Of a DNA stretch of 64,000 bases, positions 44,731 to 60,535 are shown in pieces. This DNA is from Collinsella aerofaciens (GTDB taxonomy: Bacteria > Actinomycetota > Coriobacteriia > Coriobacteriales > Coriobacteriaceae). Below the pieces are notes generated by a model. The model was not told the DNA's origin and did not search any database. It saw only the letters and a program-made list of their open reading frames with translations. The stretch spans positions 2,070,865-2,134,864 of the forward strand of contig NAKE01000001.1 of NCBI GenBank assembly GCA_008680965.1, written 5' to 3'. The position numbers and the translations under genes are program-made. How positions within the stretch are numbered: the first letter of the stretch is position 1; the number at the start of each line of letters is the position of its first letter.

Positions 44731-45566
44731 AAAGAGAAGCGCGTAGGCTTCGAAGCCTTATCGACGATGCCGACGCCATCATCGTCGGCATCGGCTCGGG
44801 CATGTCGAGCGCCGCCGGGTTCAACCATTACAACCGCGCGGGCATGGCGCGCGCAGGAATGGCGGACTGGCAGCAAGCCTTTGGCTTCAAGAGCCTTTTC
44901 GACGGCTTCTACCACCTCTACCCCAGCCTCGAGCAGCAATGGGCCTACTACGCGCGATATATCGATTTCATGCTGCGCGAGCCGACCTCGCAGCCCTATC
45001 TCGACCTACGGTCCCTCATCGGCCATAAGGATTACTTCATCCTGAGCACCAATGTAGACACCCAAGTCGAGAAGACGTTTCCCGACGAGAGAACCTGTAA
45101 CTATCAGGGAAGCTTCGCGCACCTTCAGTGCAAGCAGCCATGCTGTGACGAGCTCTTCGACGCGAGCCCCTACGTCGAACGCATGCTCGCGGGCATGGCG
45201 GGGTTCGAGGTCCTCAGCGAGGATATCCCCCGATGCCCGCATTGCGGCTGGCAGCTTGTGCCGTGGGTGCGCGACGACACGTTTCTGCAGGGTGCGGCCT
45301 GGCGCGAGAGCCTCGGACGATACGAGCGCTTCGTGTGCGAGCACAGCGATCACCGCGTGCTGTTGTTGGAGCTCGGCGTAGGCGAGATGACCCCCGGCAT
45401 CATCACGCTCCCGTTCTGGAGCATGACCGCGAAGCTGCCGGATGCGCACCTTTTGAGCGTAAACATCTCGGGCGACTCGGCTCCGTTGCAGCTTGGAAGC
45501 AAGGCAGAGGCGATCCAGGCCGATTTGGGCGCCCTGCTCTCGGTGGCGCGGGCAGGTGGCGAGTAA
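44718..45566 (+). CDS. SIR2-like protein, paralog C, with Zn-ribbon cysteines
   Basis: Overlaps paralog B by 13 nt. Motifs IIVGIGSGMSSAAG, LSTNVDTQV, CKQPCC...CPHCG and LLELGVG. Confidence 0.7.
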   Translation: MPPLEREARRLRSLIDDADAIIVGIGSGMSSAAGFNHYNRAGMARAGMADWQQAFGFKSLFDGFYHLYPSLEQQWAYYARYIDFMLREPTSQPYLDLRSLIGHKDYFILSTNVDTQVEKTFPDERTCNYQGSFAHLQCKQPCCDELFDASPYVERMLAGMAGFEVLSEDIPRCPHCGWQLVPWVRDDTFLQGAAWRESLGRYERFVCEHSDHRVLLLELGVGEMTPGIITLPFWSMTAKLPDAHLLSVNISGDSAPLQLGSKAEAIQADLGALLSVARAGGE

Positions 45567-45601
45567 CGCGGAGCGGTAGACGCGCAATGAGGTTTTAGCC
45601 G

Positions 45602-45631
45602 CAGCCTCCGAACGAGAGGGCTCGGAGGCTG
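45602..45631. terminator. 10-bp-stem hairpin between the SIR2-like operon and the decayed TetR copy
   Basis: CAGCCTCCGA-N10-TCGGAGGCTG. No clear T-run. Confidence 0.4.
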
Positions 45632-45659
45632 GTATTCCTGAATCGCAGGTCACGATGGG

Positions 45660-45945
45660 TTATCGGAATCGTGAAGAGCGGATACCGCCAGTAAGCCCCC
45701 TTCGGAATAGGCGTTGAGCAGCTCCTGGGCATGGGCGAACTCGGGGCCTCGTCGATAAGCGCATCGAGCAGCGCGTACTTATCCTCGCAATGCAGATAGA
45801 ACGTTCCCCGGTTGATCTCGGCGCGGCGGCAGATGTCCGCCACCGTCATCTTCGCGAAGCCGACCTCGGCCAGCAGCGCGAAGAACGCCTCCTGTATGAC
45901 CGAGAGGGTGTAGCGCCGCCGGCGGTCGATCTTGGTTTCTCCCAT
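45660..45945 (-). pseudogene. decayed TetR paralog with an internal deletion and frame change
   Basis: MGETKIDRRRRYTLSVIQEAFFALLAEVGFAKMTVADICRRAEINRGTFYLHCEDKYALLDALIDEA matches the intact TetR. The sequence then jumps out of frame to the equivalent of ...GPEFAHAQELL(N/S)AYSEGG..., so roughly the middle third is missing. Confidence 0.8.
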
Positions 45946-46088
45946 CGCCTCTCCAATCTGAGTCGTTTGACAATGTCCAGTAGCTGTTCGTTTATCGACA
46001 GGTGCACGCGTTTGTTCATTGCCCCTGCGAAAATCAACAAGGATACTGTTTATAGACACCTGTTTTTTATAGCTGAAAGGGAGCACGG

Positions 46089-46289
46089 ATGACCCTGTGC
46101 GAGAAGCTCGGCATCGGGCTTGTCAGCCGATCGTTTTCCCATCGGGCCGTCTATCGAAACGGCGGCACGTCATACGATTTGGGCGATTGCGAGCCTGCTG
46201 CTTGCAAGCAAGATATCGAGGTTTTTGCCCGCAAGGTGGGGGAGGCTGATTGCGTGTTTACGGGAGAGGCAGGTAGGCAGGCGTTATGA
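46089..46289 (+). pseudogene. truncated, diverged copy of SIR2-like paralog A (first ~65 codons only)
   Basis: MTLCEKLGIGLVSRSFSHRAVYRNGGTSYDLGDCEPAACKQDIEVFARKVGEADCVFTGEAG aligns with VTLYEQLVIELTNQSFSLQAAYRSGGTPYELSDREPEPYDQQIRDFARMIEEADCVLVGGASG. Homology ends where the AT-richer cassette begins. Confidence 0.75.
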
Positions 46290-46975
46290 GCATCTGCATC
46301 AAAAATCAGATTCAGAATATGAATATCGTCATCGGCTGCACGGTGGGGTGTCCATATTGCTATGCCCGTAACAATGTGAAACGTTGGCATATGATTGACG
46401 ACTTCGCTGATCCTGCGTTCTTCCCGAGCAAGCTCAAGATGATGGAAAAGAAACGCCCGCAGAACTTTCTCCTTACCGGCATGAGCGATCTCTCCGGGTG
46501 GAAGCTGGAATGGCGAGACGAGGTATTTGCAAAGATCCATGAGAATCCACAGCATCAGTTCCTGTTCCTGACCAAGAGACCCGATTTGCTGGATTTAGAT
46601 ACCGACCTGGAAAACGCATGGTTCGGCGTTACGGTGACGAGGAAAGCGGAGCTGTGGCGTATCGACGCCCTTCGGAAAAACGTCAAAGCAAATCACTTCT
46701 TCGTTACTTTTGAGCCGCTATTCGACGATCCCGGTACGGTCGACCTTTCCGGAATCAACTGGATCGTCGTCGGTACCATGACCGGGGCGCAGAGCAGGAA
46801 GGTTCATACGGAACCGGAGTGGGCATGGTCTTTGACGGACCAGGCTCACGCGCTTGGCATTCCAATGTTTATGAAGGAAGACCTCGTCTCTGTCATAGGG
46901 GACGAAAACATGATTCAGGAATTGCCGGAAGAATTCGAAAGAGTGCTGGAGGTGCAGAGAACATGGCGGAAGTGA
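46286..46975 (+). CDS. DUF5131 / phage Gp37-Gp68 family three-Cys-motif protein
   Basis: N-terminal CTVGCPYC (CxxxCxxC), WFGVTV and INWIVVG blocks, ~229 aa. AT-richer than flanking DNA. Confidence 0.65.
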   Translation: MSICIKNQIQNMNIVIGCTVGCPYCYARNNVKRWHMIDDFADPAFFPSKLKMMEKKRPQNFLLTGMSDLSGWKLEWRDEVFAKIHENPQHQFLFLTKRPDLLDLDTDLENAWFGVTVTRKAELWRIDALRKNVKANHFFVTFEPLFDDPGTVDLSGINWIVVGTMTGAQSRKVHTEPEWAWSLTDQAHALGIPMFMKEDLVSVIGDENMIQELPEEFERVLEVQRTWRK

Positions 46976-47904
46976 TTGATGGAATCCTCATCAATGAGGT
47001 GGAAGCAAAGAACATCATGACCAAGTCCAGCCTGCCGGTAGGCGGCTACTCGGTCAATCCCTATGTGGGCTGCACGCATGCCTGCAAGTATTGCTATGCC
47101 TCCTTTATGAAGCGCTTTACCGGACACAAGGAGGAATGGGGCACCTTTCTTGATGTGAAGCATTGGCCGGAAATCAAGAATCCGAAGAAATACGCTGGAC
47201 AGCGGGTGGTTATCGGTTCTGTGACGGATGGCTACAATCCACAGGAGGAGCGATTCGGGAATACCAGGAAACTCCTGGAGCAGCTGATTGGCAGCGATGC
47301 AGATATTCTGATCTGCACAAAGTCCGATCTTGTGGTACGGGATATCGATCTGCTGAAGAGGCTTGGACGAGTGACCGTTTCATGGTCGATCAACACGCTG
47401 GATGAGAACTTCAAGAACGATATGGACTCCGCGTCGAGCATCGAGCGTCGTATCGCTGCTATGAAGCAGGTGTATGACGAAGGTATCCGTACGGTCTGCT
47501 TCGTGTCCCCGGTATTTCCCGGCATCACGGATTTTGAGATGATTTTTGAGCGAGTAAAAGATCGGTGCGATTTGTTTTGGCTCGAAAATCTCAATCTTCG
47601 GGGTGGTTTCAAAAAAGCGATCCTGGATTATATCGCCGAGAAACATCCCAATCTCGTACCGCTTTACGATGAGATCTATAACAAGCGCAACCGTAGCTAT
47701 TTTGAAGCGCTTGAAGTAAAAGCCGAGGAAATGGCCAAGAAGTACGATTGCCCCTTTGTGGACAACGAAATGCCTTATGGCAGAGTCCCCCAGGGGCATC
47801 CGGTGATCGTGGACTACTTCTATCACGAGGAAGTCCGAGGGTCAGATAATAGCGGAAAAGAAATCGTTAAACGGAAACCGACGACGATTCGCTCGAGCGA
47901 TTAG
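46963..47904 (+). CDS. radical SAM protein of the SPL/DNA-photolyase-like (COG1533-type) group
   Basis: ATG 46963 overlaps the upstream stop by 13 nt. SVNPYVGCTHACKYCYA (CxxxCxxC); TIM-barrel-length body. Confidence 0.65.
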   Translation: MAEVIDGILINEVEAKNIMTKSSLPVGGYSVNPYVGCTHACKYCYASFMKRFTGHKEEWGTFLDVKHWPEIKNPKKYAGQRVVIGSVTDGYNPQEERFGNTRKLLEQLIGSDADILICTKSDLVVRDIDLLKRLGRVTVSWSINTLDENFKNDMDSASSIERRIAAMKQVYDEGIRTVCFVSPVFPGITDFEMIFERVKDRCDLFWLENLNLRGGFKKAILDYIAEKHPNLVPLYDEIYNKRNRSYFEALEVKAEEMAKKYDCPFVDNEMPYGRVPQGHPVIVDYFYHEEVRGSDNSGKEIVKRKPTTIRSSD

Positions 47905-48099
47905 CGTCCACGCGTGGCTTCTGCCGATTGGCGCAACGGGCGACAGATTAAGGGATCGCTCGGGCGGATGATCCCGCTGCAGTACAGGCGGTCGCTCAAT
48001 TTAGCGGCATGAGCGTTTTCGCACGGAAAACCAGTATCCCCTGTGCCGAGTTTAATCGTAGCGAATACAATGGGCACTGAGCATCAATCGAAAGTAGTC

Positions 48100-48816
48100 A
48101 AGAGCCTTTTCGACGGCTTCTACCACCTCTACCCCAGCCTCGAGCAGCAATGGGCATACTACGCGCGATATATCGACTTCATGCTGCGCGAGCCGACCTC
48201 GCAGCCCTATCTCGACCTACGGTCCCTCATCGGCCATAAGGATTACTTCATCCTGAGCACCAATGTAGACACCCAAGTCGAGAAGACGTTTCCCGACGAG
48301 AGAACCTGTAACTATCAGGGAAGCTTCGCGCACCTTCAGTGCAAGCAGCCATGCTGTGACGAGCTCTTCGACGCGAGCCCCTACGTCGAACGCATGCTCG
48401 CGGGCATGGCGGGGTTCGAGGTCCTCAGCGAGGATATCCCCCGATGCCCGCATTGCGGCTGGCAGCTTGTGCCGTGGGTGCGCGACGACACGTTTCTGCA
48501 GGGTGCGGCCTGGCGCGAGAGCCTCGGACGATACGAGCGCTTCGTGTGCGAGCACAGCGATCACCGCGTGCTGTTGTTGGAGCTCGGCGTAGGCGAGATG
48601 ACCCCCGGCATCATCACGCTCCCGTTCTGGAGCATGACCGCGAAGCTGCCGGATGCGCACCTTTTGAGCGTAAACATCTCGGGCGACTCGGCTCCGTTGC
48701 AGCTTGGAAGCAAGGCAGAGGCGATCCAGGCCGATTTGGGCGCCCTGCTCTCGGCGGCGCGGACGGGCGACGAGCAGCGCAGTTCATCGCGCCGTGTTTC
48801 ATGCGTGGACGCTTAA
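48100..48816 (+). pseudogene. 5'-truncated near-identical copy of SIR2-like paralog C
   Basis: 48100-~48766 matches 44887-~45553 with only a few substitutions seen by eye. The Gly-rich NAD-binding N-terminus is missing. The C-terminal ~15 codons and the downstream sequence differ. Confidence 0.8.
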
Positions 48817-48820
48817 ATCA

Positions 48821-48845
48821 AAACCACCCCTAGAAGGGGTGGTTT
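48821..48845 (+). terminator. hairpin AAACCACCCC-TAGAA-GGGGTGGTTT after the truncated SIR2-like copy
   Basis: Perfect 10-bp stem, followed by TTTGCTCTT. Confidence 0.55.
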
Positions 48846-48849
48846 GCTC

Positions 48850-49620
48850 TTAGGGTGTAACCCTTGGATTTCCGGCACGCGTCTAAAGGCGCCGGCCCTC
48901 ACGGGGTTCGGGCCGCACTGCAGATTGACCCGTGACGGGCCGGTCAAACCGGCGCTATTTACGCCCCGGCCCCCTATCGAAGGGGTCCTCGTACTCCTTG
49001 GCGCTCAGCCGGTCGAGCGCGATGTCGGCCTTCCCCTGCTCCCGGATGTACTTCGCGATCGTGGCCTCGTTCAGGCCGACGGTGGACACGCAGTGGCCCT
49101 CGGCCCAGAACTTCCTGTTGCCGAATTTGTACTTCATGTTCGCGTGCCTGCCGAATACCATCAGCGAGCTCTTCCCCTTCAGGTAGCCCATCACGCTGGA
49201 CACGCTGTACTTCGGCGGTATCGCCAGCAGCATGTGGACGTGGTCGGGCATCAGGTGCCCCTCGATGACCTCTATCCCCTTGTACTGGCAGAGCTTCCTG
49301 AAGATCTCCCCAAGGTCGGACCTTATTTGGTTGTAGATGACTTTGCGCCTATACTTCGGCGTGAACACGACGTGGTACTTGCACGTCCACTTCGTGTGCG
49401 ACAGGCCGTAGGCCTTCTGGGCCATACGCCACCACCGCCCTCTCGACTCGGATTCCTTGCGGCCTGAACAATCGCAAGTGTCCGGCGAGGGGGCGGCTTT
49501 GTAAAGCCGTTTGGCCCCACCCGCATAGCGGGTGGTTTCTGATGCGGCGCGCTGCGCGCCCCGCACAGGCTAAAGCCTGTAAATAAAAATACCCCCGATT
49601 CCAAGCGGAAATCGGGGATA
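48850..49620 (-). mobile_element. IS200/IS605 family element (boundaries approximate)
   Basis: Y1 transposase gene flanked by GC-rich subterminal hairpins, e.g. CACCCGC-ATA-GCGGGTG (~49519-49535) and CCCCGATT-N9-AATCGGGG (49593-49617). No terminal IRs, as expected for this family. Confidence 0.6.
48955..49425 (-). CDS. tnpA: IS200/IS605 family Y1 (HUH) transposase TnpA
   Basis: MAQKAYGLSHTKWTCKYHVVFTPKYRRK...PDHVHMLLAIPPKYSVS...YIREQ. HUH motif (HVH) and catalytic Tyr region present. Start at ATG 49423-49425. Confidence 0.9.
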   Translation of the reverse strand: MAQKAYGLSHTKWTCKYHVVFTPKYRRKVIYNQIRSDLGEIFRKLCQYKGIEVIEGHLMPDHVHMLLAIPPKYSVSSVMGYLKGKSSLMVFGRHANMKYKFGNRKFWAEGHCVSTVGLNEATIAKYIREQGKADIALDRLSAKEYEDPFDRGPGRK

Positions 49621-50059
49621 TCTCATCGGGTGGCTTTCAAGCAGTTTGCAAAACTGCAGGTCGCAGACCTTCATTGCTAGTAGGAGAAATGAGTAGTCTC
49701 GGGTGGCTTGCCCATGAGTTGACGAATACGTTGGAACTTCGCCATTGGCTCAATCGCTTCGCGCGCTCGATAAACTTGTTTAGTAAAAGGCGGATCGGTC
49801 ACCGATGGACGCGCGACGAGAAACACGTACCTCCAGTGGTTCAAGCACGGCGCGCGTGAGGATCTCTGCAAGCAACCACCTGGTACGCTACTGTTGCCAG
49901 CGTGGCTTAGCGGACTGGCGAATCCCGCCCCGTGCGCGTCATCATCCAATCAAATGCCCTGGCAAGCAGCAGCACCGCCAATCACACTGCGTTCTTACGG
50001 CGCCCTCTGCGATACAATTAGCGAATTGTGTTTTCACCTCGCAGCTACGGAGACATTAG

Positions 50060-53000
50060 ATGATTACGCTGGACAATCTTCGCGACGCACTTAGGGCTCT
50101 GTGCTACGAGCCGTCGGGCGACGGCACCGTTTATCAGAAATCCTGGGAAGAGACCAGCGCGCAAATCACGGTCGATTTTTCCAAGAAACGCATCGGCTAC
50201 CCGAAAGACCTGGGGTTCAAGGTCAACAAAGACACAACTTGTAACTTCTCCGATAACGAGAACTTCGTCGTACTCGCCTGCGTAACCATGCTCCTCGACA
50301 AAGGATATCGCCCCGAATCACTCGAGCTGGAGCGCGAATGGGCCCTTGGGCACGAACAAAAGAGCGGCCGCGCTGATATCTGCATTAATGACGAGAGGGG
50401 CGACACACTCGCAATCGTCGAATGCAAGACCCCTGGAACCGAGTTCAAAAACGAATTCAAGAACATGCAGTCAGACGGAGGGCAACTCCTCTCCTATTGG
50501 CAACAAGAGCGCGCGACTCGCTGGTTGGTACTCTTTGCATGCGATTTCATCAACAACGAAATTGTGCCAGACCAGGTTTCAATTAACTGCAGCGATGACG
50601 AGAACTTCATCGCGCTCGCCAAACGCGATGACACCATTGCGCTCTACCGCGACGCCCATACAGTGGAACAGCTCCATCAAGTTTGGACGGAAACGTACAA
50701 CCAACAAGTCGAGGGAAACATCCTCTTTGGCGATAGGTCGACGGCATACCACCCGATGGTTCCTCCCCTTCTCAAGAAGGACCTTGTCGACTTCAGGGCC
50801 GAAGACAGCATCGTCAACCGCTTCGAGGAAATCCTCCGCCACAACAACGTCTCCGATAAAGAGAACGCCTTCAATCGCCTTATTGCGCTCTTTATCGCGA
50901 AGCTCCAAGACGAGCTCTCGAAAATGCCAACCCAGGAGATTGAGTTCCAATACCGCCAAGGACGCGACACCTACGAAACGCTCCAGGACAGACTCCAGAG
51001 ACTCCACTCAGACGGCATGAGAAAGCTCATGCGGGAAGAGGTCCTGTACGTTCCCAACAACTACGCCGAAAACCTCATAAGCAACTATACGGGCCAGCAC
51101 CGCAAGAAGCTCATCGAGGAGCTGAACGGCACGCTGCGCAAGCTCAAGTTCTATACCAACAATGACTTTGCGTTCAAAGACGTCCACAACGAGGAACTCT
51201 TTCTTCAGAACGGCAAGGTACTCGTAGAGACGGTGCAACTTCTACAGCCGTATCGCATCGTAGGAACTCAAGACATTCAATTCTTGGGCGACCTCTTCGA
51301 ACAGCTCCTTAATCAGGGCTTTAAGCAAAACGAGGGCCAATTCTTCACACCTGTGCCCATCACCCGTTTTATTTGGAAGTCACTCCCACTCGACAGCATC
51401 GTGCAGGACGAGGCTGGTGCCGTACACTATCCACGCGTTATCGATTACGCCTGTGGCGCGGGGCACTTTCTCACAGAAGGATTCGAAGAAATCTCCGACG
51501 CCGCATGCCAATATGATCCGACCATAGAGGATGACCTCGGAGACGCCGACTGGGTCAGAGACAATCTCGTCGGCATCGAGAAGGACTATCGACTCGCTCG
51601 CGTTTCCAAGGTCTCGTTCTACATGCATGGCGCAGGGCAGAGCAACGTGGTCTTCGGCGACGGACTTGAAAATTATCCCGACAAGGGAATCGACAGCCGA
51701 ACCGACAGGGGACGCTTCGACATTCTTGTCGCCAATCCCCCGTACTCTGTAGCGGCCTTCAAACCGCATCTCAAGCTTCACAACAACGAACTCAAAGTGC
51801 TGGAAACCATCAGCGATAGCGGCTCGGAAATCGAGACCCTCTTTGTCGAGCGTGCGGCACAGCTTGTTCGGCCCGGAGGCTACGCCGCCATCGTCCTCCC
51901 CACCTCGATCCTCGACAAGAGCACGAGCTCGAGTTTCATGGCCGCACGCGATGTGCTTTTGAGCTCCTTCGAGATCGTCTCCATCGCCAGGTTTGGATCA
52001 GGCACATTCGCGGCCACAGGAACAAACGTCGCAATTATGTTCCTACGTCGCTTTGACGAGATCCCGCCCCGCAATGCGAACGCACTTGATTTCGTTGACG
52101 CTGTTTTTGAGCGCAGGAAGCTCACTGGCTGGAGAGACGAAAGCGCTTTCAACGCTTATCTCGGCACAATTAATGTAGACGGAGATACTTACCGGGCTTT
52201 TCTCGCAGGAGAGGCTAACTGGAACGAATGGGCAAACACTCGCCACTTCAGCGTTTATTGCCATCTTTTCGAATCATCGAAGGAGCTCAAGGCCCTTCGG
52301 AAGAGCAAGACTTGGAAGGCGGCCGACAAGAACTCACGGCTCAAAGCAGAGAGCGAGCTGTTCTATCGCCATGCGCACAAGGAAGAGCGCAAACGCCTGC
52401 GCGTTTGGGGTCTCGTCTGCGGCGAACAGACGCTCATCATCAACTCACCTAACACGACCAAGGAAATCGCCTCTTTCCTTGGCTACAAATGGAGCAATCG
52501 CAAAGGCAACGAGGGGATACAGCCCATCGATGGTGAGGGCGTGCTCTATTCGGACAACGAATCGGACGACACGAACTCGCTAAGCGGCATCATCAGAGCA
52601 TGGTTCTCCGGCGAGCAGGTTGAGCCCGGCGACCTTGCCCAGTACTACTACTATGCCAAGACCGCCGATTTCATTGACTTTGATGCCGATAAGTTCGACG
52701 AGACTCTTACGATTCCCCGCTCTTTCTACAAGCCCCGCTCGTTCGCCCAGGGCACCGTAGTCAAGACGCTTAGAGACATCACATCCTACGTTACCAACAG
52801 CGTGGCCCAGAGTTCCATCACCACCGACACTTACGTAACAACGGAAAACATGGTCAAGGACCGTGGCGGCATAACCGCCTATGGCGGAGAGCTTCCGGCA
52901 AGTGATGGCACCGCATACAAGAAGGGAGACACGCTCGTCTCCAATATTCGCCCCTATCTGCAGAAGATTTGGCTCGCAGACCGCGATGGGGCGTGCTCCA

Positions 53001-53905
53001 AGGATGTTTTGGTATTCCGAAGCATAAATACCGACAGCCTATTGCCCGAGTTTCTCCATCTGCTCCTGTGGCAGAAGGACTTCTTCGACTACGATATGTC
53101 CACCTTCACGGGAACCGGCAGGCCTCGCGGAGACAAGGATGAGCTGCTCAAATACCCCATCCCAGTCCCGACGCTCTCCGAGCAGAGAGCCCTCATCGAC
53201 GATTTCAATCGCTTAACAGATGAAATCAATAGCAAACGACAGCAAATCGCCGCTCTCAAGGAGAGCGTCAAATCACGGTTTGTCGAGGTATTTGGCGATC
53301 CGGTCGATGGTAAAAAATGGCCTTTCGTTAGGCTTGAAGACCTCTGTACCAAGTTGGGTTCCGGAGCAACACCACGAGGCGGCAAAACGGCATACAAGGC
53401 CGAAGGTGTTCCGCTGGTCAGAAGTATGAATGTTCACAACGGTCGTTTCGTGTGGAAGGACCTTGCTTGTATTGATGATGAACAAGCCGCAAAACTAGAA
53501 GGCGTCACGCTGATGAAGGGTGACGTGCTTCTGAATATTACTGGCGCTTCGGTTGCTCGTTCATGTCTTTTGCCGGATGAATTGGCTGGTGGACGTGTTA
53601 ATCAGCATGTCTCAATTGTCAGAGTCGACCAAAAACGGATGCTACCGGTGCTATTGAACACGGTGCTGATCAGTGATTCGTATCAGAGACTCCTGCTAAA
53701 CGGCTCAAGAGCGGCTGGAGCAACAAGGGAGGCAATTACCAAAGAAGATCTAAAGAGAATGACGGTTCCCTTGCCTCCCCTTGAGCTTCAGCAAGAGTTC
53801 GCCGACTTCGTCGCCCAGGTCGACAAATCGCAATTTGCACTCGAGCAAGAGGTCGACGCCCTTTCCGCAGAGCGCGACGCCCTTCTAGACCGATTCCTCG
53901 CGTGA
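50060..53905 (+). CDS. single-chain restriction-modification-specificity enzyme (type IIB/IIG-like): N-terminal PD-(D/E)xK nuclease, N6-adenine methyltransferase, HsdS-like two-TRD module
   Basis: Nuclease-like GRADICINDERGDTLAIVECK; MTase motif I VIDYACGAGHFL and motif IV LVANPPYS. The C-terminal ~400 aa carry two TRDs separated by the conserved helix LSEQRALIDDFNRLTDEINSKRQQIAALKESVKSRFVEVFG and end in LELQQEFADFVAQVDKSQFALEQE. No separate hsdR, hsdM or hsdS gene is present. Confidence 0.75.
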   Translation: MITLDNLRDALRALCYEPSGDGTVYQKSWEETSAQITVDFSKKRIGYPKDLGFKVNKDTTCNFSDNENFVVLACVTMLLDKGYRPESLELEREWALGHEQKSGRADICINDERGDTLAIVECKTPGTEFKNEFKNMQSDGGQLLSYWQQERATRWLVLFACDFINNEIVPDQVSINCSDDENFIALAKRDDTIALYRDAHTVEQLHQVWTETYNQQVEGNILFGDRSTAYHPMVPPLLKKDLVDFRAEDSIVNRFEEILRHNNVSDKENAFNRLIALFIAKLQDELSKMPTQEIEFQYRQGRDTYETLQDRLQRLHSDGMRKLMREEVLYVPNNYAENLISNYTGQHRKKLIEELNGTLRKLKFYTNNDFAFKDVHNEELFLQNGKVLVETVQLLQPYRIVGTQDIQFLGDLFEQLLNQGFKQNEGQFFTPVPITRFIWKSLPLDSIVQDEAGAVHYPRVIDYACGAGHFLTEGFEEISDAACQYDPTIEDDLGDADWVRDNLVGIEKDYRLARVSKVSFYMHGAGQSNVVFGDGLENYPDKGIDSRTDRGRFDILVANPPYSVAAFKPHLKLHNNELKVLETISDSGSEIETLFVERAAQLVRPGGYAAIVLPTSILDKSTSSSFMAARDVLLSSFEIVSIARFGSGTFAATGTNVAIMFLRRFDEIPPRNANALDFVDAVFERRKLTGWRDESAFNAYLGTINVDGDTYRAFLAGEANWNEWANTRHFSVYCHLFESSKELKALRKSKTWKAADKNSRLKAESELFYRHAHKEERKRLRVWGLVCGEQTLIINSPNTTKEIASFLGYKWSNRKGNEGIQPIDGEGVLYSDNESDDTNSLSGIIRAWFSGEQVEPGDLAQYYYYAKTADFIDFDADKFDETLTIPRSFYKPRSFAQGTVVKTLRDITSYVTNSVAQSSITTDTYVTTENMVKDRGGITAYGGELPASDGTAYKKGDTLVSNIRPYLQKIWLADRDGACSKDVLVFRSINTDSLLPEFLHLLLWQKDFFDYDMSTFTGTGRPRGDKDELLKYPIPVPTLSEQRALIDDFNRLTDEINSKRQQIAALKESVKSRFVEVFGDPVDGKKWPFVRLEDLCTKLGSGATPRGGKTAYKAEGVPLVRSMNVHNGRFVWKDLACIDDEQAAKLEGVTLMKGDVLLNITGASVARSCLLPDELAGGRVNQHVSIVRVDQKRMLPVLLNTVLISDSYQRLLLNGSRAAGATREAITKEDLKRMTVPLPPLELQQEFADFVAQVDKSQFALEQEVDALSAERDALLDRFLA

Positions 53906-53942
53906 TACGTTCCTCCCATCCATATCGGGATGGGAGGAACTG

Positions 53943-54935
53943 ATGCACACGACGATCGAAATAGCAAACGCGGTTCTCACAAAAATGCAGGCACTCGTTA
54001 GCGGCGAAGTGCTTTCGTATCTCGAGAGCGTCCTTATGAGCGAACTCAGGGGCATCGAACTTGAAGTGAACGCGCTCAGCAATGTCGAAGACGAGGCCTC
54101 AAAGTACATGGAGCGATTCCTCGCAGCCAAAACCATCGAGGGATGCTCGCCTAAGACCATCAGGTACTACAAGGCCACACTTACAAGGGCGCTCGAAGCA
54201 ATCAAAAAACCAATTGTCCGGATTAGTTCAGATGACTTACGAACATACCTGAGCGAATATCCCATGGGTAATAACGCAGGGAGCATCACCGTCGACAACG
54301 TCAGGCGCATCCTGTCGTCATTCTTCTCTTGGCTTGAAGACGAGAACCATATACTCAAAAGCCCTGCACGACGCATTAAAAAGATTCGCTCAAAGAGAAC
54401 GGTCAAGTCCGTATATTCTGATGAAGAACTTATAGCCCTCACAGACGCCTGTTCTTGCAAGAGGGATCTGGCAATCATCAACCTTCTTAGTTCAACAGGG
54501 ATGAGAATAGGCGAACTCGTCTCGCTCAATCGAGAAGACGTTGATCTAAATCGGCGAGAGTGCATTGTACTCGGAAAGGGCAACAAAGAGAGAGTCGTCT
54601 ATTTTGATGCGACTACAAAGCTGCACCTAAACAACTACCTGCAAGAACGCAGCGATAACGTCGCCGCGCTATTCTGTAGTCTCACAAAGCCGAGTTCTAG
54701 GCTGCAAGTAAGCGGAGTCGAGCTCCGCCTTCGCTCCTTGGGAACAAAAGCAGGCGTCAAACACGTCCACCCACATAAGTTCAGGAGAACGCTGGCCACC
54801 AAAGCAATTGGAAAAGGAATGCCCATCGAGCAGGTGCAGAAGCTGCTTGGCCATCAAAAGATTGATACAACGTTGATGTACGCAATGGTCGATCAGGACA
54901 ACGTAAGGGACTCTCATAGAAGGTATATCTGTTAA
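53943..54935 (+). CDS. tyrosine site-specific recombinase (XerC/D-integrase family)
   Basis: TGMRIGELVSL (Arg), HPHKFRRTLAT (HxxR) and LLGHQKIDTTLMYA (His..Tyr). Lies between the active and spare TRD segments. Confidence 0.85.
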   Translation: MHTTIEIANAVLTKMQALVSGEVLSYLESVLMSELRGIELEVNALSNVEDEASKYMERFLAAKTIEGCSPKTIRYYKATLTRALEAIKKPIVRISSDDLRTYLSEYPMGNNAGSITVDNVRRILSSFFSWLEDENHILKSPARRIKKIRSKRTVKSVYSDEELIALTDACSCKRDLAIINLLSSTGMRIGELVSLNREDVDLNRRECIVLGKGNKERVVYFDATTKLHLNNYLQERSDNVAALFCSLTKPSSRLQVSGVELRLRSLGTKAGVKHVHPHKFRRTLATKAIGKGMPIEQVQKLLGHQKIDTTLMYAMVDQDNVRDSHRRYIC

Positions 54936-55523
54936 GTCAAATCACGGTTTGTAGAGATATTCGCATCCTTTGATGGCTGTGAAAAACTCCCGCTATGCAA
55001 CTGCGTTGATTGTGTCGAGTCCGGAAAGAGCCCAAAGTGTCTGACGACTCCGCGAGCTGGATCGGAGCCAGCTGTCCTTAAGCTCAGTGCCATTTCTACT
55101 GGTACATACTGCGAGGATCAGAACAAGGCGCTTCCGCTCGACAGCGAGCCTGTTATTAGCAAGTTTGTGCGGGATGGCGACATCCTTCTCGCTCGCAAGA
55201 ACACTCCCGAGCTTGTTGGGCGCTCTGTTCTCGTTAGGCATACTGATGGCGGTATCATGTTTCCAGACATAGTGTTTCGTATGCATCCGTTGCCTATCGT
55301 CGACGGGGCATATCTCTCTCATCTGCTTTCCGAAACGATGCTTAATTCGATTCGTTCGCTTGCGCATGGCTCTGCTAAATCAATGAGTAATATTCCAAAG
55401 ACCGAACTTGAAAAGCTGTTGATTCCGATACCACCCGCAAGCCTTCAGCGCCAGTTCGCCGACTTCGTCACCCAGGTCGACAAATCGCAATTTATCATCC
55501 ACCAAGATCTTCACGGCTTTTGA
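54936..55523 (+). other. promoterless, start-less spare TRD2 cassette (half-HsdS)
   Basis: Begins 1 nt after the recombinase stop with VKSRFVEIF... and ends LQRQFADFVTQVDKSQFIIHQDLHGF*. The frame is open throughout (~195 codons). It is bounded by the same two conserved blocks as the expressed TRD2: a 17-nt exact repeat at 53267-53283 / 54936-54952 and a 41-nt 40/41 repeat at 53796-53836 / 55453-55493, both pairs direct. Confidence 0.8.
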
Positions 55524-55549
55524 AAAGACAGATAGTTACATGTCCAACG

Positions 55550-55960
55550 CTACAGAAGCCCGAGGACCGTCGCCTTTGATAGCATCTCGTAGGCTCGCGG
55601 ATATGTCTCTTTGTCGCGCTCGGCCATAAATGCCCAGTTCGCCGTCACGTCAGCCGCTCTCACCATAGCCACCTTGGAGGAGTCGACATAGGAGACTGGA
55701 ATCTTGGGCAGCCAGTCGCTAAATACAGGAGGGTAGGAAGTCTGCCACGTTGGATTGAACATGCCGCAGCTCAGCTCCTCATCAATCGATTCTGCCAGGT
55801 TGTACTTTCCGTCGATCGAAGTCGAATGCTCGTCAACCACAACAGAAACCGCGTCAACCTCACTCGCGGCAATTCCCTGAAGCCTCAGCGCGTCAACGAT
55901 GCCGGACTTCACGCCACGCTTTAGAGCGTAGTCAAGATACCTTTGCTTGCGCCTTTTCGA
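55550..55960 (-). pseudogene. 5'-truncated gene fragment (possibly DUF3800-like)
   Basis: The C-terminal ~135 codons look coding (…YVDSSKVAMVRAADVTANWAF…). The N-terminal part of the listed ORF runs into the IS30 remnant and is not native. Confidence 0.35.
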
Positions 55961-55970
55961 GCTTGAATTC

Positions 55971-56138
55971 TCAGAGCAAGTGCAACACCTCTGAGTAGTG
56001 GACCTCGTAGGGCGTCCTGAACCCCAGGCGTTTGTGGGGCCTGCGGTTGATGGCATCGTACACCCGCTCGACCTCCTCGTCCGAGACCGCAGAGAAGCCG
56101 GTCCCCTTCGGGAAGTACTCGCGCAACAGACCGTCTGT
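55971..56138 (-). pseudogene. IS30 family transposase, C-terminal ~55-codon remnant
   Basis: Reverse translation gives TDGLLREYFPKGTGFSAVSDEEVERVYDAINRRPHKRLGFRTPYEVHYSEVLHLL*, the typical IS30 DDE C-terminus. Confidence 0.75.
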
Positions 56139-56164
56139 GTTTAGTCAAGCCTGATTTTCGGTTT

Positions 56165-56220
56165 GGGGCTGCGGTGGAAATCCTGGTCCTCTTTTGATCC
56201 AGGATTTCCACCGCAGCCCC
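56165..56220. repeat. perfect 22-bp-stem foldback (GGGGCTGCGGTGGAAATCCTGG-N12-CCAGGATTTCCACCGCAGCCCC), core of a ~120-bp imperfect palindrome (56133-56251)
   Basis: Read directly. The outer arms share TCTGTGTTT / AAACACAGA and GGTTTGGGG / CCCCAACC. Confidence 0.9.
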
Positions 56221-56251
56221 AACCCGTAAATTGAACGCTATCAAACACAGA

Positions 56252-56473
56252 TGCCGTCGCGAAGTCGATGTCGCGCGTGACGCGGCCGTCGGGGATGCGC
56301 GCGAGCAGCCCGCTTCCGCCCTTGAGGATGAACCGGCCGTCGGGGTTGCTGAACACCCTGCACAGGAACCGGTCGCGCAAAGCCCGACGACAGCCGTCCC
56401 CAGGGTCACCGCCCCTGTCGCGAACGACCCTCTTCAGGGCCCTGTCGAGCTGACCGCCGTTCTCGTACGTCAT
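56252..56473 (-). pseudogene. AbiEii/AbiGii family nucleotidyltransferase toxin, N-terminal ~73 codons only
   Basis: MTYENGGQLDRALKRVV...RFILKGGSGLLARIPDGRVTRDIDFAT. Homology stops at the palindrome arm. Confidence 0.7.
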
Positions 56474-56854
56474 TCTTCCCGCCTCCTAGCTAACGAACCG
56501 CACAGGCTGGCCCCCGCCGGCATCCCGGCTTTTGCCCCCCTCGCGTCGATTTTCTCCCTCAGCGTGCCCTCGTCTTCGACGAGGCCCCTTTCGAGCGCGT
56601 CCGCGAGCACGTTCGCGACCAGGCTCAGCTCCTCCCCGGAGTCTATCAGGTCCACCACCGTGAGCCAGGGCCTCGTCGCCGGGATGTCCGAGACGATCGC
56701 CACGTCCTTCGGGTCGAGGCGGCGCTTCCTGATGAATCAGGTTCGGGCGCTTAGTCTGCTTTCTCTCGGGCGTGCAGAACTCGTAGGGCGAGGGGCTGAC
56801 CTCGCCGATGCCGTAGAGCCATGCAGCCGTCGCCCCCATGGCGACGGGGCTCCT
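56470..56854 (-). pseudogene. AbiEi family antitoxin, C-terminal part (frameshifted)
   Basis: ...SPVAMGATAAWLYGIGEVSPSPYEFCTPERKQTKRPNLIH runs in one frame. It continues as RKRRLDPKDVAIVSDIPATRPWLTVVDLI... in another frame, with the shift near 56725-56735. The stop overlaps the AbiEii start. Confidence 0.7.
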
Positions 56855-56939
56855 TGTGTTTCGTCAAGAGGATTTGAGCAAAAAGAGCATCGGAAATTGA
56901 GCAGCCTGAGCATCGGAAGTACGCACGCTTTTTGAGCGG

Positions 56940-57683
56940 CTAGCCCTCCTGCATGAGGGCGTGACGGACGCGGTAGGACTCGCCGCGGAACTGGACGAGC
57001 CTCCCGTGGTGGACGATGCGGTCGATCACGGCGGCAGCCATCTGGTCGTCCCCGAACACCGACCCCCACCTGCTGAACTCCAGGTTCGTGGTGATTACCA
57101 CCGACTGCCTCTCGTATGCGTCGGCGAAGACTTGGAAGAGCAGCCTCGCCCCGTCCGCGTCGAGCGGGAGAAACCCGAGCTCGTCGATGACGAGCAGGCG
57201 GGCCTTGCCGATGAGCGCGGCCTCCCGGTCGAGCCTCCCGTCGTCGCGGGCGCGCCTCAGGCGCATCACGAGCGAGGACGCCGTGAAGAATCGCGCCTCG
57301 AGCCTCCTCTCGCACGCCAGCGCGCAGAGGGCCGACGCCATGTGCGTCTTGCCGGTGCCGACGTCGCCCATGAGCACGAGGTCCTCCCTGCGCTCGACGA
57401 AGTCGAGCGCGAGCAGCGACTCGCGCCCCATGCCCTCCGGCCACGACACGGCCGACCAGTCGTAGCCGTCGAAGGTCTTGGGCGCCGGCAGCGCGCAGCG
57501 CCTGAGCAGCGTCGCGCGCTTCGAGGCCTCGCGGCTGGACCTCTCCGCCTCGAGGTAGCCCGCCAGGTACTCCACCTGTTTCGGGGTGCCGAGCCTCGAC
57601 CACTCCTCCAGGACGGCGGTGGTGAGCGAGCACGACCGCCCGGCCTCCAGGACCCTGCGGGCCAGCTCCTCGCTAGCTGCCAT
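56940..57683 (-). CDS. istB: IS21 family helper ATPase IstB
   Basis: Walker A GDVGTGKTH, Walker B LLVIDELG, C-terminus DRIVHHG. Confidence 0.9.
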   Translation of the reverse strand: MAASEELARRVLEAGRSCSLTTAVLEEWSRLGTPKQVEYLAGYLEAERSSREASKRATLLRRCALPAPKTFDGYDWSAVSWPEGMGRESLLALDFVERREDLVLMGDVGTGKTHMASALCALACERRLEARFFTASSLVMRLRRARDDGRLDREAALIGKARLLVIDELGFLPLDADGARLLFQVFADAYERQSVVITTNLEFSRWGSVFGDDQMAAAVIDRIVHHGRLVQFRGESYRVRHALMQEG

Positions 57684-58026
57684 CGGCGACCGCCCCCTTC
57701 AGGAACCCGTCGTAGACCGACAGGTCGGCCCCGCCGGCCCCGCCGCCGCCTCCCGCGATGCGTCTCGCCAGCACGTCGACCGTGGCGTCGTCGGGGACGC
57801 GGCCGCCCTCGACGACCCTGAGCGCCGCCTCGCATGCCGCCTCGAAACCCGAGGACTCGCTCGCCCGGCCGATCGACCTGAGCGTGCGCCTCCTGCCGGC
57901 GGAGTCCATCCGGTCGATCCCCTCGACGAGCCCCGGCGGCATGTCGCGCCTGATCGTCGACTCCCCGAAGGCCCTCGGCCTGGCGATGATGGCGGGCACG
58001 AGCGAGAGGGGGTTCCGGACCGCGGG
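57673..58026 (-). pseudogene. istA: IS21 transposase IstA, C-terminal fragment
   Basis: Joins in frame to 59244..60359 (…AFGEGP|AVRNPLSLV…) after removal of the IS3 element and one GGG copy. Confidence 0.8.
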
Positions 58027-58087
58027 TGGATTGGCTACACTGGTGTGGACAGTTCCGGGAGGGGCGCAGGAGACGGGAGGGCCGTAT

Positions 58088-58375
58088 ATGAGGGACCCCA
58101 GGCACCCGAGGCATTTCACCGACGAGTTCAAGAGGCAGATAGTCGACCTCTACAACGCCGGCAAGCCCAAGCGCGAGATCATGGACGAGTACGACCTCGG
58201 CAAGAGCACCGTGGAGAGGTGGATCAAGTCGATAAACGCGACCGGCTCGCCGCGCGCCGCGGACAACCGCACGCCCGAGCAGAACCGGATCCTGGAGCTC
58301 GAGCGCGAGAACCGCAGGCTCCGGATGGAGGTCGACGTCTTAAAACAAGCGGCGCTGATATACGCTCGAAAGTGA
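58088..58375 (+). CDS. IS3 family transposase OrfA (HTH)
   Basis: MRDPRHPRHFTDEFKRQIVDLYNAGKPKREIMDEYDLGKSTVERWIK... with a leucine-zipper-like C-terminus. Confidence 0.85.
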   Translation: MRDPRHPRHFTDEFKRQIVDLYNAGKPKREIMDEYDLGKSTVERWIKSINATGSPRAADNRTPEQNRILELERENRRLRMEVDVLKQAALIYARK

Positions 58376-59229
58376 GGGCCATAGCGGCCAACGAGGGCCG
58401 CTACCCCATATCAGCGCAGTGCAGGCTCCTCGGCGTCGCGAGGTCGACGTACTACTCCATGCGCTCGCGGCCCGGCCGGCCCGCCGCGCCGGACCCCGCC
58501 GCGCCGGCCGTGGTCGCGGCCCACGCCGCCAGCAAGGGCCGGTACGGCTCGCGCAAGATAAAGGCGTCGCTCGAGCGGTCGGGCGTCACCGTCAGCCGGC
58601 GCCGGGTCTGCCGCATCATGAGGGAGAACGGCCTGGTCAGCGCATACGGCAGGAAGAGGTTCAAGGTGCACCCCGGGGCGGTCAACGAGGCCGACGTGCC
58701 GAACGTCGTCGCGCGCGGCTTCTGCGGCAGGGCGCCGCGCACCCATATATGCAGCGACCTGACCTACGTGCGCGTGGGGGCGTCGTGGAACTACGTCTGC
58801 CTGCTCGTCGACCTCTACAACAGGGAGATCGTCGGCCACTCCGCCGGGCCCAGGAAGGACGCCCGGCTGGTCAAGTCGGCGTTCGCGACGCTCTCCTTCC
58901 CGATCTCGGACATCGAGGTGTTCCACACGGACCGCGGCAGCGAGTTCGACAACGCCGAGATCGACCTGATGCTCGAGGCCTTCGGCATAGAGAGGTCGCT
59001 GTCGGCCAAGGGCTGCCCCTACGACAACGCCGTCGACGAGTCGACCAACAGGATACTGAAGGCCGAGCTCGTCCACCGCGAGACGTTCGGCACGACGCGC
59101 GAGCTCCGGGCCAAGCTCTCGGACTACGTGCACTGGTACAACAACTTCAGGATCCACTCGACGCTGGGCTACATGTCGCCGGTCGAGTTCAGGGAGGCGG
59201 GGCTGTCCCTCCCGGAATCGTCCAAATAG
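58339..59229 (+). CDS. IS3 family transposase OrfB (DDE integrase core), probably made as an OrfAB fusion by -1 frameshifting
   Basis: DLTYV, HTDRGSEF and NAVDES...E motifs. orfB is in the -1 frame relative to orfA, with overlap 58339-58375 containing C-UUA-AAA-C. The exact slip site is not proven. Confidence 0.8.
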   Translation, partial: LKTSGADIRSKVRAIAANEGRYPISAQCRLLGVARSTYYSMRSRPGRPAAPDPAAPAVVAAHAASKGRYGSRKIKASLERSGVTVSRRRVCRIMRENGLVSAYGRKRFKVHPGAVNEADVPNVVARGFCGRAPRTHICSDLTYVRVGASWNYVCLLVDLYNREIVGHSAGPRKDARLVKSAFATLSFPISDIEVFHTDRGSEFDNAEIDLMLEAFGIERSLSAKGCPYDNAVDESTNRILKAELVHRETFGTTRELRAKLSDYVHWYNNFRIHSTLGYMSPVEFREAGLSLPESSK

Positions 59230-59243
59230 GTGTTGCCAATCCA

Positions 59244-60359
59244 GGGGCCCTCCCCGAAGGCCCTGGGGAGGACGGCGACCCGGCGGCCGCGGTCGGCGAG
59301 GATCTCCACCGTCGACGCGCGCATGCCGACGAGCAGGCTCCGCCCGTGCCAGGCGGGCCCGGCGACGTACTCGCGCCCGTCGGCCTCGACGTAGCCGCGC
59401 TTGTCGGCGCGGGCGGTGACCCACCTCACCGCGTCGAACTCCACGCCGGGAAGGGCGCGCATGGCGGCGAGGTCCTCCCGGTAGGCCTCCCCGTGCGGCC
59501 TGCCGTCGCGGCAGCGCGCCGCCGCGTTGACCCTCGCGCATCCATCGGCGAGGAACGCGTTGAGCTCGGGGAGCGTGCCGAACGCCGGCACGGGGACGAG
59601 GAGGTTGCGCCGGAGGAACCCCACGGCGTTCTCGACGGAGCCCTTCTCGTTTCCCGAATAGGGGTTGCAGTACCGGCTCTCGAAGCGGTAGTGGGCCCTG
59701 AACTGCGAGAACAGCCTCGATTCCGTGACCTCGCCGCGCACCATCCTGCCCGCCTCGGTGGCGTTGTCGAGCACCATCGCCGCCGGGGCGCGGCCCCAGC
59801 GGCGGAAGATCTCGAGCAGCCCGGCGCACAGGCACTCCGACCTCTGCGACATGAGGGCGACGCACTGCCGGTCGTTCGAGTGCGGAAGCGTCGCGACCAG
59901 CAGCTTGAGGTCGAGGGTCCTCCCGCCGACCGCGGCGCGGAAGTTCCCGAAATCGACCTGGCAGGTGCCGGGCGCCCACTCGAGCTCGAGGTACCCCTCT
60001 CCGCCCGCCGCCGCCCGGGCAAGCCTGAGCTCGCGGACGAACCTCTGCACGGTGGAGTACGAGCCGCCGTAGCCGCGCTCGGCGACGAGCCTGTAGTAGA
60101 TCCGCCTGGCGGTGTGGCGCTGCTTCCTCGGGGCCCCGAGGTCGGCCTCGAGAACGCCCGCGATCCATTCCTCGTTGCCCTCGAGCGCGGGCCTGCCCCT
60201 CCTCTGGGGCATCGGCGCGACGGGCGACATGTCCTCCATGTCGGCGTACTTCGCCACGGTGTTCCGGCTCACGTGGAGCACTCTGGCGATTTCGGACCTC
60301 GAGCGCCCGGCGGCATCCATCGACCGTATATCATTCACTGTGTCCAGGGGCACGGTCAT
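59244..60359 (-). pseudogene. istA: IS21 transposase IstA, N-terminal fragment
   Basis: GGAGGAG RBS then ATG 60357-60359. HTH MDAAGRSRSEIARVLHVSRNTVAKY and DDE region CQVDFG...LVATLPHSN...VLDNA. Confidence 0.85.
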
Positions 60360-60535
60360 CTCCTCCATCCTTCCCGGGCGGGCTCGCCAAAGTAACCGCC
60401 CGGGGAAACCATACGGCGAGGGCCGCGCCCCCGGTCCCCGGGGCGCGGCCCTCTTGCTTAAACTGCTCAACTTTTCGTGCTCACGGTGCTCATTTCCCAG
60501 TGATCACTCGGACCACTTCTTAGTGAACATCAACA

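Follow-up and report, generated by a model that had tools for sequence, protein, structure and literature searches.

Three-subunit Type I restriction-modification (R-M) enzymes are well known to change their DNA specificity through site-specific recombination, and inversions in fused Type II enzymes have been added only recently. In the tvr locus of Streptococcus pneumoniae (SpnIV), the recombinase TvrR drives a shufflon by excision and reintegration (Kwun et al., 2018; PMC6265443); its midpoint repeat of ~18 bp and tail-end repeat of ~70 bp have a core of ~11 bp in common, all copies are direct, and the excised circles were detected by PCR (PMC6265443). Besides tvr, a 2020 survey found direct repeats in one of the 46 hsdS-recombinase loci examined in detail, a Sphaerochaeta locus (PMC7672463). 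Phase variation in Type II systems is typically on-off only according to the tvr paper (PMC6265443), and for fused Type II enzymes a 2023 survey added programmed inversions but no case of excision-reintegration (Milman et al., 2023; PMC9881135). Single-chain Type IIB enzymes include AloI, TstI, PpiI and CjeI, TstI being 1251 aa long (PMC4027205). Here we describe a locus in a stretch of 64,000 nt from Collinsella aerofaciens (contig NAKE01000001.1, forward-strand positions 2,070,865 to 2,134,864), called the window below and numbered from its first base. The locus comprises the gene of a single-chain nuclease-methylase-specificity enzyme, a tyrosine recombinase gene, and a spare copy of the sequence for the second target recognition domain (TRD2). 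Comparison with other loci of Collinsella, a human-gut member of the Coriobacteriaceae, makes it likely that expressed and spare TRD2 cassettes trade places by recombinase-mediated reciprocal exchange at two sites, i.e., by a tvr-type switch placed on a single-chain Type IIB/IIG enzyme.

An earlier note, made from the window alone, had set this layout against hsdS shufflons that were said to rely on inverted repeats. That statement does not hold, as the pneumococcal tvr had been overlooked; the novelty was thus overstated, because tvr already uses excision-reintegration at direct repeats. The swap mechanism was known from tvr, and what is new is its attachment to a single-chain enzyme. Searches of open-access papers for a Type IIB/IIG cassette system linked to a recombinase, and for phase variation of R-M systems in Collinsella, turned up no specific description.

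A single-chain enzyme with an expressed and a silent TRD2 cassette

The main features of the locus, all on the + strand, are as follows.

50060-53905 (+): single-chain restriction-modification-specificity enzyme, 1281 aa (open reading frame [ORF] call, Pfam domains, PADLOC end-to-end match)
50060-50764 (+): N-terminal PD-(D/E)xK endonuclease domain, residues 1-235, with D106, E121 and K123 (HSDR_N_2, conservation, model)
51275-52060 (+): gamma-class N6-adenine methyltransferase domain, residues 406-667, with DYACGAGHF and NPPY (N6_Mtase, Eco57I)
52700-53266 (+): TRD1 with the conserved central helix, constant across the Collinsella relatives (profile matches to Methylase_S and type I Specificity, residues ~900-1075)
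53267-53283 (+): siteL, expressed copy, invariant 17 nt GTCAAATCACGGTTTGT encoding VKSRFV at the end of the central helix (exact repeat)
53284-53821 (+): expressed TRD2 cassette, type A (cassette cluster A)
53822-53836 (+): siteR, expressed copy, invariant 15 nt GACAAATCGCAATTT encoding DKSQF in the C-terminal helix (exact repeat)
53837-53905 (+): tailA, the 3' end of the expressed gene, fixed to its slot (ALEQEVDALSAERDALLDRFLA, stop), second half of the C-terminal helix
53943-54935 (+): Xer-like tyrosine recombinase dedicated to the locus, 330 aa (Phage_integrase, recomb_XerA_Arch)
54936-54952 (+): siteL, silent copy, identical 17-mer adjoining the recombinase stop codon
54953-55478 (+): silent TRD2 cassette, type B, open frame without a start codon (translation, Methylase_S)
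55479-55493 (+): siteR, silent copy, identical 15-mer
55494-55523 (+): tailB, slot-fixed short end (IIHQDLHGF, stop), the enzyme C-terminus in recombinase-less deletion forms

The fused 1281-aa ORF, the tyrosine recombinase gene directly behind it and the start-less TRD2 alternative of ~195 codons one nucleotide past the recombinase stop had all been proposed in the earlier note, and each is present where it had been placed. The domain searches that the note had called for found HSDR_N_2, N6_Mtase and Methylase_S. The parts of the enzyme follow one another in the order nuclease, N6-adenine methylase, TRD1, central helix, TRD2 and C-terminal helix. In Pfam, HSDR_N_2 matched residues 79-132 just above its cut-off (25.6 bits against 25), N6_Mtase matched residues 406-667 (E 2.9e-22) together with Eco57I (E 1.2e-9), and Methylase_S matched two stretches extending up to residue 1264. 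The PADLOC profile REase_MTase_IIG (PDLC03624) covers the enzyme nearly end to end (residues 1-1280 against profile positions 1-1269 of 1271, E 7.9e-258). Of the solved structures, the RM subunit of BsaXI, a Type IIB enzyme, is the closest relative (8w0p, E 3.7e-38), and the C-terminal part (residues 900-1271) is matched by the Type I-like S subunits 7vru_C (residues 900-1251) and 5ybb_D. Pfam and PADLOC profile scans detected no helicase or translocase domain in the enzyme. No hsdM or hsdR was found near the locus; R, M and S are all in one ORF.

Among 16 enzyme relatives at 41-66% identity, D106, E121, C122 and K123 of the nuclease domain are invariant, as are the methylase motif I residues D462, Y463, C465, G466, A467, H469 and F470 and the NPPY motif (N559, P560, P561, Y562). 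D106, E121 and K123 are the putative catalytic residues of the nuclease. An AlphaFold model of residues 1-235 (pLDDT, the model's own per-residue score, 91) matched with confidence only BsaXI chains in a Foldseek search (E 3.3e-9, probability 1.00), weaker matches being other restriction-nuclease folds. With these matches the single-chain, type IIB-like architecture suggested in the earlier note is borne out; judged from the protein sequence, architecture and length correspond to those of AloI and TstI. The enzyme is predicted to read a bipartite target through the constant TRD1 and the exchangeable TRD2.

The frame of the spare cassette begins at 54936, the base after the TAA stop of the recombinase gene, and stays open for 195 codons up to a TGA at 55521-55523. 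The cassette matches Methylase_S (Pfam, E 1.2e-5) and is 29-30% identical to the expressed TRD2, with the conserved blocks kept at both ends. As the note had stated, both repeat pairs are direct. The left one (53267/54936) is exact over 17 nt and 92% identical over 26 nt; the right one (53786/55443) extends over 79 nt at 80% identity and holds the block with 40 of 41 identical bases. The window holds exactly two copies each of the 17-mer and the 15-mer, all on the + strand, against shuffle expectations for its 64 kb of 0.00 and 0.13, respectively. A tblastn search with the S region and the spare cassette found no further TRD copy on either strand of the window. siteL (GTCAAATCACGGTTT) resembles siteR (GACAAATCGCAATTT) in a common CAAATC..TTT core, and the centres of the two differ. 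We infer from this difference, given how tyrosine recombinases use the overlap region, that siteL would pair mainly with siteL and siteR with siteR.

The silent cassette also lies in the reading frame of the recombinase with only the TAA between them (54933-54936), so that readthrough would yield a recombinase-TRD fusion. The shared frame probably results from the position of siteL right against the stop codon; at a related locus described below (L120), the silent cassette is out of frame with the recombinase.

Cassettes occupy both slots reciprocally across Collinsella

Loci were collected by a genome scan (enzyme alignment) and a metagenome scan (recombinase), which gave 96 loci of the clade, 86 of them non-redundant (cited below by L or P numbers), and TRD2 types A-F were defined as clusters at ≥90% nucleotide identity. 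Over the 96 loci, identity is 97-100% for the recombinase and for the enzyme core as far as TRD1, and in every two-slot locus the recombinase is conserved in its position at 98-100%. Alternative occupancy of the TRD2 position in related genomes, which the earlier note had proposed to look for, is plainly seen: all six cassette types were found in the expressed slot and also in the silent slot. The expressed/silent combinations are as follows.

C/A: 21 non-redundant loci
A/C: 21 non-redundant loci
B/A: 3 non-redundant loci
A/B: 2 non-redundant loci, window included
D/E: 2 non-redundant loci
E/C: 1 non-redundant locus
A/E: 1 non-redundant locus
C/B: 1 non-redundant locus
B/F: 1 non-redundant locus
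F/D: 1 non-redundant locus

Reciprocal arrangements are about equally common (A/C to C/A 21:21, A/B to B/A 2:3), and none of the 62 two-slot loci has the same cassette in both slots. Of the non-redundant loci, 29 express cassette A and 25 hold it in the silent slot, and three of its alleles recur in identical form in both slots; the expressed cassette of the window is the silent one in L012 and many other loci. Conversely, the silent cassette B of the window is the expressed TRD2 of P0002/L001 (98.2% nucleotide identity), and B is also expressed in L021, L022 and L049. Cultured isolates carry both A/C (L013, L017, L040, L057) and C/A (L024-L028, L047, L060), and the swap pattern is therefore not a metagenome artefact.

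Opposite arrangements are found on identical backgrounds. L014 and L036, and likewise L104 and L107, differ in arrangement with 0 mismatches in 4280 nt, and one haplotype cluster at ≤3 mismatches contains 8 A/C and 9 C/A loci. The A/B loci L062/L096 and the B/A loci L021, L022 and L049 are ≤10 mismatches apart in 4.28 kb, with one A/B-B/A pair at ≤3. These opposite arrangements on identical backgrounds indicate that switching recurs and outpaces point mutation in the locus. The concern raised in the earlier note that the spare cassette might be frameshifted or absent in relatives is not realised, since 52 of 57 silent copies are intact, compared with 66 of 71 expressed ones. In L046 (9208-9851), unrelated sequence of high GC breaks into the expressed cassette C after ~370 nt; an insertion or rearrangement has probably inactivated the enzyme there.

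Both strands of the 96 loci were searched for siteL and siteR with ≤2 mismatches allowed, and 0 reverse-strand copies were found, which rules out an inversion shufflon. A minus-strand Methylase_S ORF downstream in L003/L005 and L011, considered as a partner site, turned out to be an unrelated hsdS fragment in the flank.

Exchange boundaries and by-products

Junction sequences were sorted by cassette and by slot. At the left edge, the sequence is slot-specific up to the 17-mer and cassette-specific polymorphism starts with the next base; at the right edge, it is cassette-specific up to the 15-mer and then continues into slot-specific tails. tailA (ALEQEVDALSAERDALLDRFLA) always follows the expressed slot, whichever cassette occupies it. 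tailB follows the silent slot wherever the downstream flank of the window type is present, and in other contexts a different sequence follows the silent siteR. A and C, the most frequent partners, have little in common beyond these 17 and 15 bases, and the exchange therefore fits site-specific rather than homologous recombination.

Deletion products map to the same two sites. Recombination between like direct sites removes one cassette together with the recombinase gene, so recombinase-less forms are expected, and they were found as RM-[C]-tailB (five loci) and RM-[A]-tailB (one locus), where RM is the enzyme core and the letter in brackets the cassette. P0009/L002, L029, L033, L048, L059 and L061 end in tailB. 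In L011, RM-[D] is joined to a flank that L003, which comes from the same study, has after its silent slot. L113 (6966-6980) has a hybrid site, GTCAAATC followed by GCAATTT, right after the recombinase stop, and its silent cassette is absent; by its sequence, this is the product expected of a rare siteL-by-siteR deletion within the common CAAATC. Another recombinase-less locus, L030 (RM-[F]-tailB), carries at 3733-3749 the siteL variant GTCAAATCACAATTTGT, with AA in place of GG, which makes it more like the centre of siteR.

Seven contigs break off precisely at the final base of the 17-mer siteL; here, where cassette sequence begins, the assembly graph forks, showing that the enzyme core is followed by more than one cassette in the same sample. 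L099 (5343-8644) reads RM-[C]-tailA-rec-[C]-tailA-rec-[A]-tailB (rec, recombinase), with two identical units of 1651 nt (cassette C, tailA, recombinase) in tandem. The tandem could have arisen when an excised circle entered an intact locus, by unequal exchange or from the path of the assembler. Its use as proof of circle integration was given up and it was downgraded to a sign of heterogeneity, since an assembler running through a mixed A/C and C/A population could give the same path. In L003-L008 (10313-10957, - strand) and L011 (7446-8066, - strand), an inverted, unrelated hsdS fragment (...YYRDRLLDF) lies directly past the siteR of the silent slot, which places the right boundary of the module exactly at siteR in these loci.

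These boundaries bear on a rival explanation, in which horizontal transfer with RecA-dependent allelic replacement is all that happens, and recombinase and spare cassette are passengers without switching within a lineage. With six cassette types over just two slots some exchange between strains is certain, and the module is found in differing genomic contexts at a GC (guanine plus cytosine) content below that of its flanks. Invariant sequences of 17 and 15 nt are, however, short for efficient homologous recombination, and transfer by itself would not lead one to expect A/C and C/A at equal frequency on identical backgrounds, deletion and hybrid-site products that map to the same bases, or a site pattern that is kept beside 53-62% identical recombinases in other phyla. 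We regard this explanation as improbable.

The recombinase, its relatives and its upstream hairpin

The recombinase matches Phage_integrase (E 5e-33) and also SAM_4, a SAM-like N-domain, in Pfam, and scored 238.5 bits with the NCBIfam model recomb_XerA_Arch (NF040815; curated cut-off 220). PADLOC has no model for it. The translation keeps the catalytic motifs RIGE, GKGNKER, HPHKFRR, LGHQ and LMY, and the gene sits between both cassette slots in every two-slot locus, irrespective of the flanks.

Relatives of the recombinase are very numerous, some 8000 of them being found. Those 53-62% identical to it are encoded in other R-M loci, between the TRD segments, and every relative with a readable neighbourhood is within an R-M locus. 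That the recombinase might group with integrases of phages or integrative and conjugative elements (ICEs), a possibility raised in the earlier note, is ruled out by this neighbourhood together with the Xer-like family model and the slot-fixed position. At loci with a 53-62% identical recombinase, exact repeat pairs that are particular to each locus show this pattern in this position, for example AAATCCAAATTTG with GACAAATTGAAATTTG and TCAAATCCCGATTTAT with GATAAATCGAAATTT. Three relatives are located behind fused enzymes of the same family with a direct silent TRD (Veillonella sp. VA142, Negativicoccus massiliensis and a Streptococcus metagenome-assembled genome [MAG]). Classical hsdM-hsdS-rec-hsdS'-hsdR loci with a related recombinase are represented by L120 and L138-L144, the order in L141 and L142 being rec-hsdS-hsdM-hsdS. 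Among the 22 distant fused-enzyme homologues with enough downstream sequence, only the 3 just named carry the module, and it is thus an optional add-on to the fused enzyme.

L145-L147 (hsdM ... hsdR) are classical Type I loci with a recombinase at 58% identity, a RhuM-like gene ahead of it and inverted TRD fragments. With the same recombinase protein, their TRD layout varies by sample: the full hsdS and the half hsdS with an inverted fragment switch sides of the recombinase, and inverted repeats of 15-25 nt are present. The recombinase family of these loci may drive inversions as well as translocations. The contigs L069 and L076, from MAGs of Ruminococcaceae and Clostridia in which the enzyme is 48-49% identical, end near enzyme residues 1077-1080, at the midpoint repeat, which hints at a variable TRD2 in distant relatives too.

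The 37 nt between the enzyme stop and the recombinase start contain no ORF and form a hairpin.

53909-53940 (+): perfect 13-bp hairpin whose 3' arm holds the Shine-Dalgarno sequence of the recombinase gene, GGGAGGAA (inverted repeat, RNA fold)

Its fold energy is -32.5 kcal/mol (z = -5.4), a value reached by 0 of 200 shuffles, and the ATG of the recombinase gene lies 2 nt past the stem. By analogy with the tvr attenuator, occlusion of the Shine-Dalgarno sequence probably keeps expression of the recombinase, and hence the switching rate, low. Hairpins around the Shine-Dalgarno sequence in the distant loci L066, L071, L124 and L126 are weaker and inconsistently conserved, and Shine-Dalgarno occlusion across distant loci is to be taken as a lead only.

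So stable a hairpin over the ribosome-binding site would also suit a second rival, that the locus is a former shuffler turned into a static copy (e.g., with a silenced or inactive recombinase) and the spare cassette is a stored relic. Recombinase-less locked forms are common, and a scan of 49500-56200 found no sigma-70-like promoter, although such a scan is uninformative for an actinobacterium. The recombinase ORF is nevertheless intact with its RIGE, GKGNKER, HxxR and Y motifs and is 98-100% identical to copies in strains of the opposite arrangement; both sites are intact, the silent cassette is open, and the A/B and B/A loci are as close as described above (≤10 mismatches). A static locus is, in our opinion, about as improbable as transfer without switching.

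A proposed two-step exchange through an excised circle

Recombinase-mediated exchange, the explanation we prefer, would be conservative and proceed in two steps, the recombinase encoded between the TRD2 slots acting at two kinds of short direct site within coding sequence. Recombination of siteL with siteL, or of siteR with siteR, would excise a circle of ~1.66 kb (1669 bp via siteL, 1657 bp via siteR) with one cassette and the recombinase gene; the predicted junction of the siteL circle runs from ...TATCTGTTAA through GTCAAATCACGGTTTGT to CGAGGTATTTGG. The chromosome would be left in a one-cassette form ending in tailB. Reintegration via the other kind of site would then place the formerly silent cassette in frame and park the other behind the recombinase gene, with the result that the cassettes are swapped and tailA is still on the expressed gene. 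Since nuclease, methylase and TRDs are in one chain, cleavage and methylation would change their second half-site together. Loss of the circle or failed reintegration would give a locked, recombinase-less tailB form.

The earlier note had argued that the cassettes are swapped without simple inversion, and this stands: reciprocal pairs are common, no inverted site was found in the 96 loci, and deletion products occur at the same two sites. It had left the choice between excision-reintegration and gene conversion open. The reciprocal pattern favours the former; non-reciprocal conversion, in which the silent cassette is copied to the expressed slot as in antigenic variation of the pilin or variant surface glycoprotein (VSG) type, would be allowed by the direct orientation and the flanking homology blocks, yet it predicts same-cassette loci, which are missing among the 62 two-slot loci, while the displaced cassette always turns up in the other slot and the module keeps a tyrosine recombinase of its own, all of which makes conversion most improbable.

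Several points speak against the exchange by recombinase. The evidence comes from assembled loci, from which circles and heterogeneity within a clone are predicted, and the contig breaks and the L099 tandem could be due to strain mixtures or to an assembler walk. Dependence on the recombinase is suggested by the position of its gene, and in tvr some excision is independent of TvrR (PMC6265443). A toxin-antitoxin module like tvrAT is absent at the locus. The presence of six cassette types for two slots means that some inter-strain exchange must also occur. The activity of the enzyme and its recognition sequences are predictions.

The unit of 1.66 kb (TRD2 cassette, recombinase gene and two heterospecific sites) could also be a self-encoded, integron-like specificity cassette that may be lost, captured or passed between strains as well, a tentative idea to which we give limited credence. 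If it were true, the circulation of six cassette types through two-slot loci in different contexts would be explained, and the recombinase with its sites would be a natural case of recombinase-mediated cassette exchange inside coding sequence. The tailB form, with its truncated C-terminal helix, could then be a built-in inactive intermediate, and if inactive it would shield the cell from self-restriction while a new methylation pattern is laid down.

Genomic surroundings

The module (49803-55523) has a GC content of 0.49-0.55, and the flanks (44000-49800 and 55600-60500) reach 0.60-0.72. In Collinsella strains it occupies at least four genomic contexts (L001, L003, L009 and the window). With lower GC than its flanks and several contexts, the module appears to be horizontally mobile or to lie in a hot spot. 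Mobile-element and broken defence genes surround it in the window (48955-49566, - strand; 56141-56473, - strand; 56940-57683, - strand; 57586-59229, + strand): an IS200-like Y1 transposase upstream, a short fragment of an AbiEii toxin gene, and an IS21 IstB and an IS3-type integrase downstream (IS, insertion sequence). An inverted repeat of 33 nt (56154-56186/56199-56231, 94% complementary, 12-nt loop) lies inside the region of the AbiEii fragment.

Implications

The rarer direct-repeat route of excision and reintegration, regarded as exceptional, thus also serves a single-chain nuclease-methylase-specificity enzyme. It is common in an abundant human gut genus, and the same recombinase-site module is carried by fused as well as classical R-M loci of different phyla. 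The locus makes it possible to test how cells survive a sudden change of joint cleavage and methylation specificity, whether epigenetic phase variants exist in Collinsella populations, and whether two heterospecific sites of 15-17 nt with one small recombinase would do as a tool for in-frame cassette exchange. Engineered TRD swaps among AloI, PpiI and TstI have reportedly led to new specificities (Jurenaite-Urbanaviciene, 2007). In Collinsella, six TRD2 cassettes occur naturally on one constant scaffold, a panel from which the rules that link TRD to sequence in Type IIB enzymes could be worked out. Metagenomic analyses should expect the assembly breaks and the strain-level differences that the locus causes.

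Comparison with known systems

The locus is most like tvr. Both have a tyrosine recombinase gene between TRD-coding segments and two classes of direct repeat with a common short core, the midpoint repeat being ~17-18 bp and the tail-end repeat ~70-80 bp long; siteL is the counterpart of the midpoint repeat and siteR the core of the tail-end-like repeat. In both, the first TRD is fixed and downstream TRDs move between slots, so that the same TRD is found up- or downstream of the recombinase gene, recombinase-less shortened forms occur, and a structured RNA element precedes the recombinase gene. The C-terminal TRDs end in LPPLALQNEFADFVAQVDKSQLA in tvr and in LPPLELQQEFADFVAQVDKSQFA in the Collinsella locus, and the tail-end repeat peptide LPPLxLQxEFADFVAQVDKSQ (EFADFVAQVDKSQ) is common to both. 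This comparison was made on the TRD protein sequences. The homologous tail-end peptide makes it plausible, at the level of sequence, that the recombinase is orthologous to TvrR. The two systems differ in that tvr serves a three-subunit Type I enzyme, whereas R, M and S of Collinsella are one polypeptide without a translocase. tvr has the tvrAT toxin-antitoxin pair, which the Collinsella locus lacks; the latter has two slots only, exchanges the C-terminal TRD alone and belongs to a gut actinobacterium. Circles were shown by experiment in tvr, whereas those of the Collinsella locus are predicted from sequence.

With AloI, TstI, PpiI and CjeI, the enzyme shares a length of ~1250-1280 aa and the order of PD-(D/E)xK nuclease, gamma N6-adenine methylase and two-TRD module. 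The likeness to AloI and TstI is one of architecture and length, cleavage on both sides of the site being a prediction. No recombinase or spare TRD has been reported with these characterised enzymes. The two-chain BsaXI (PDB 8w0p) resembles the enzyme in the nuclease and methylase domains of its RM chain, both by sequence and by fold.

In Cj0031 homologues, DISARM DrmMI and BREX PglX (PMC9881135), and in inverting hsdS shufflons such as ivr/SpnIII (PMC7672463), a recombinase likewise replaces a specificity part from a silent partial copy and generates heterogeneity within the population. Their repeats are inverted, and the change is made in one inversion. The inverted repeats by which inverting hsdS shufflons (ivr/SpnIII, Mycoplasma and Bacteroides type) are recognised have no equivalent among the Collinsella sites, which are all direct; the exchange would therefore take two steps via an excised intermediate, with possible irreversible loss.

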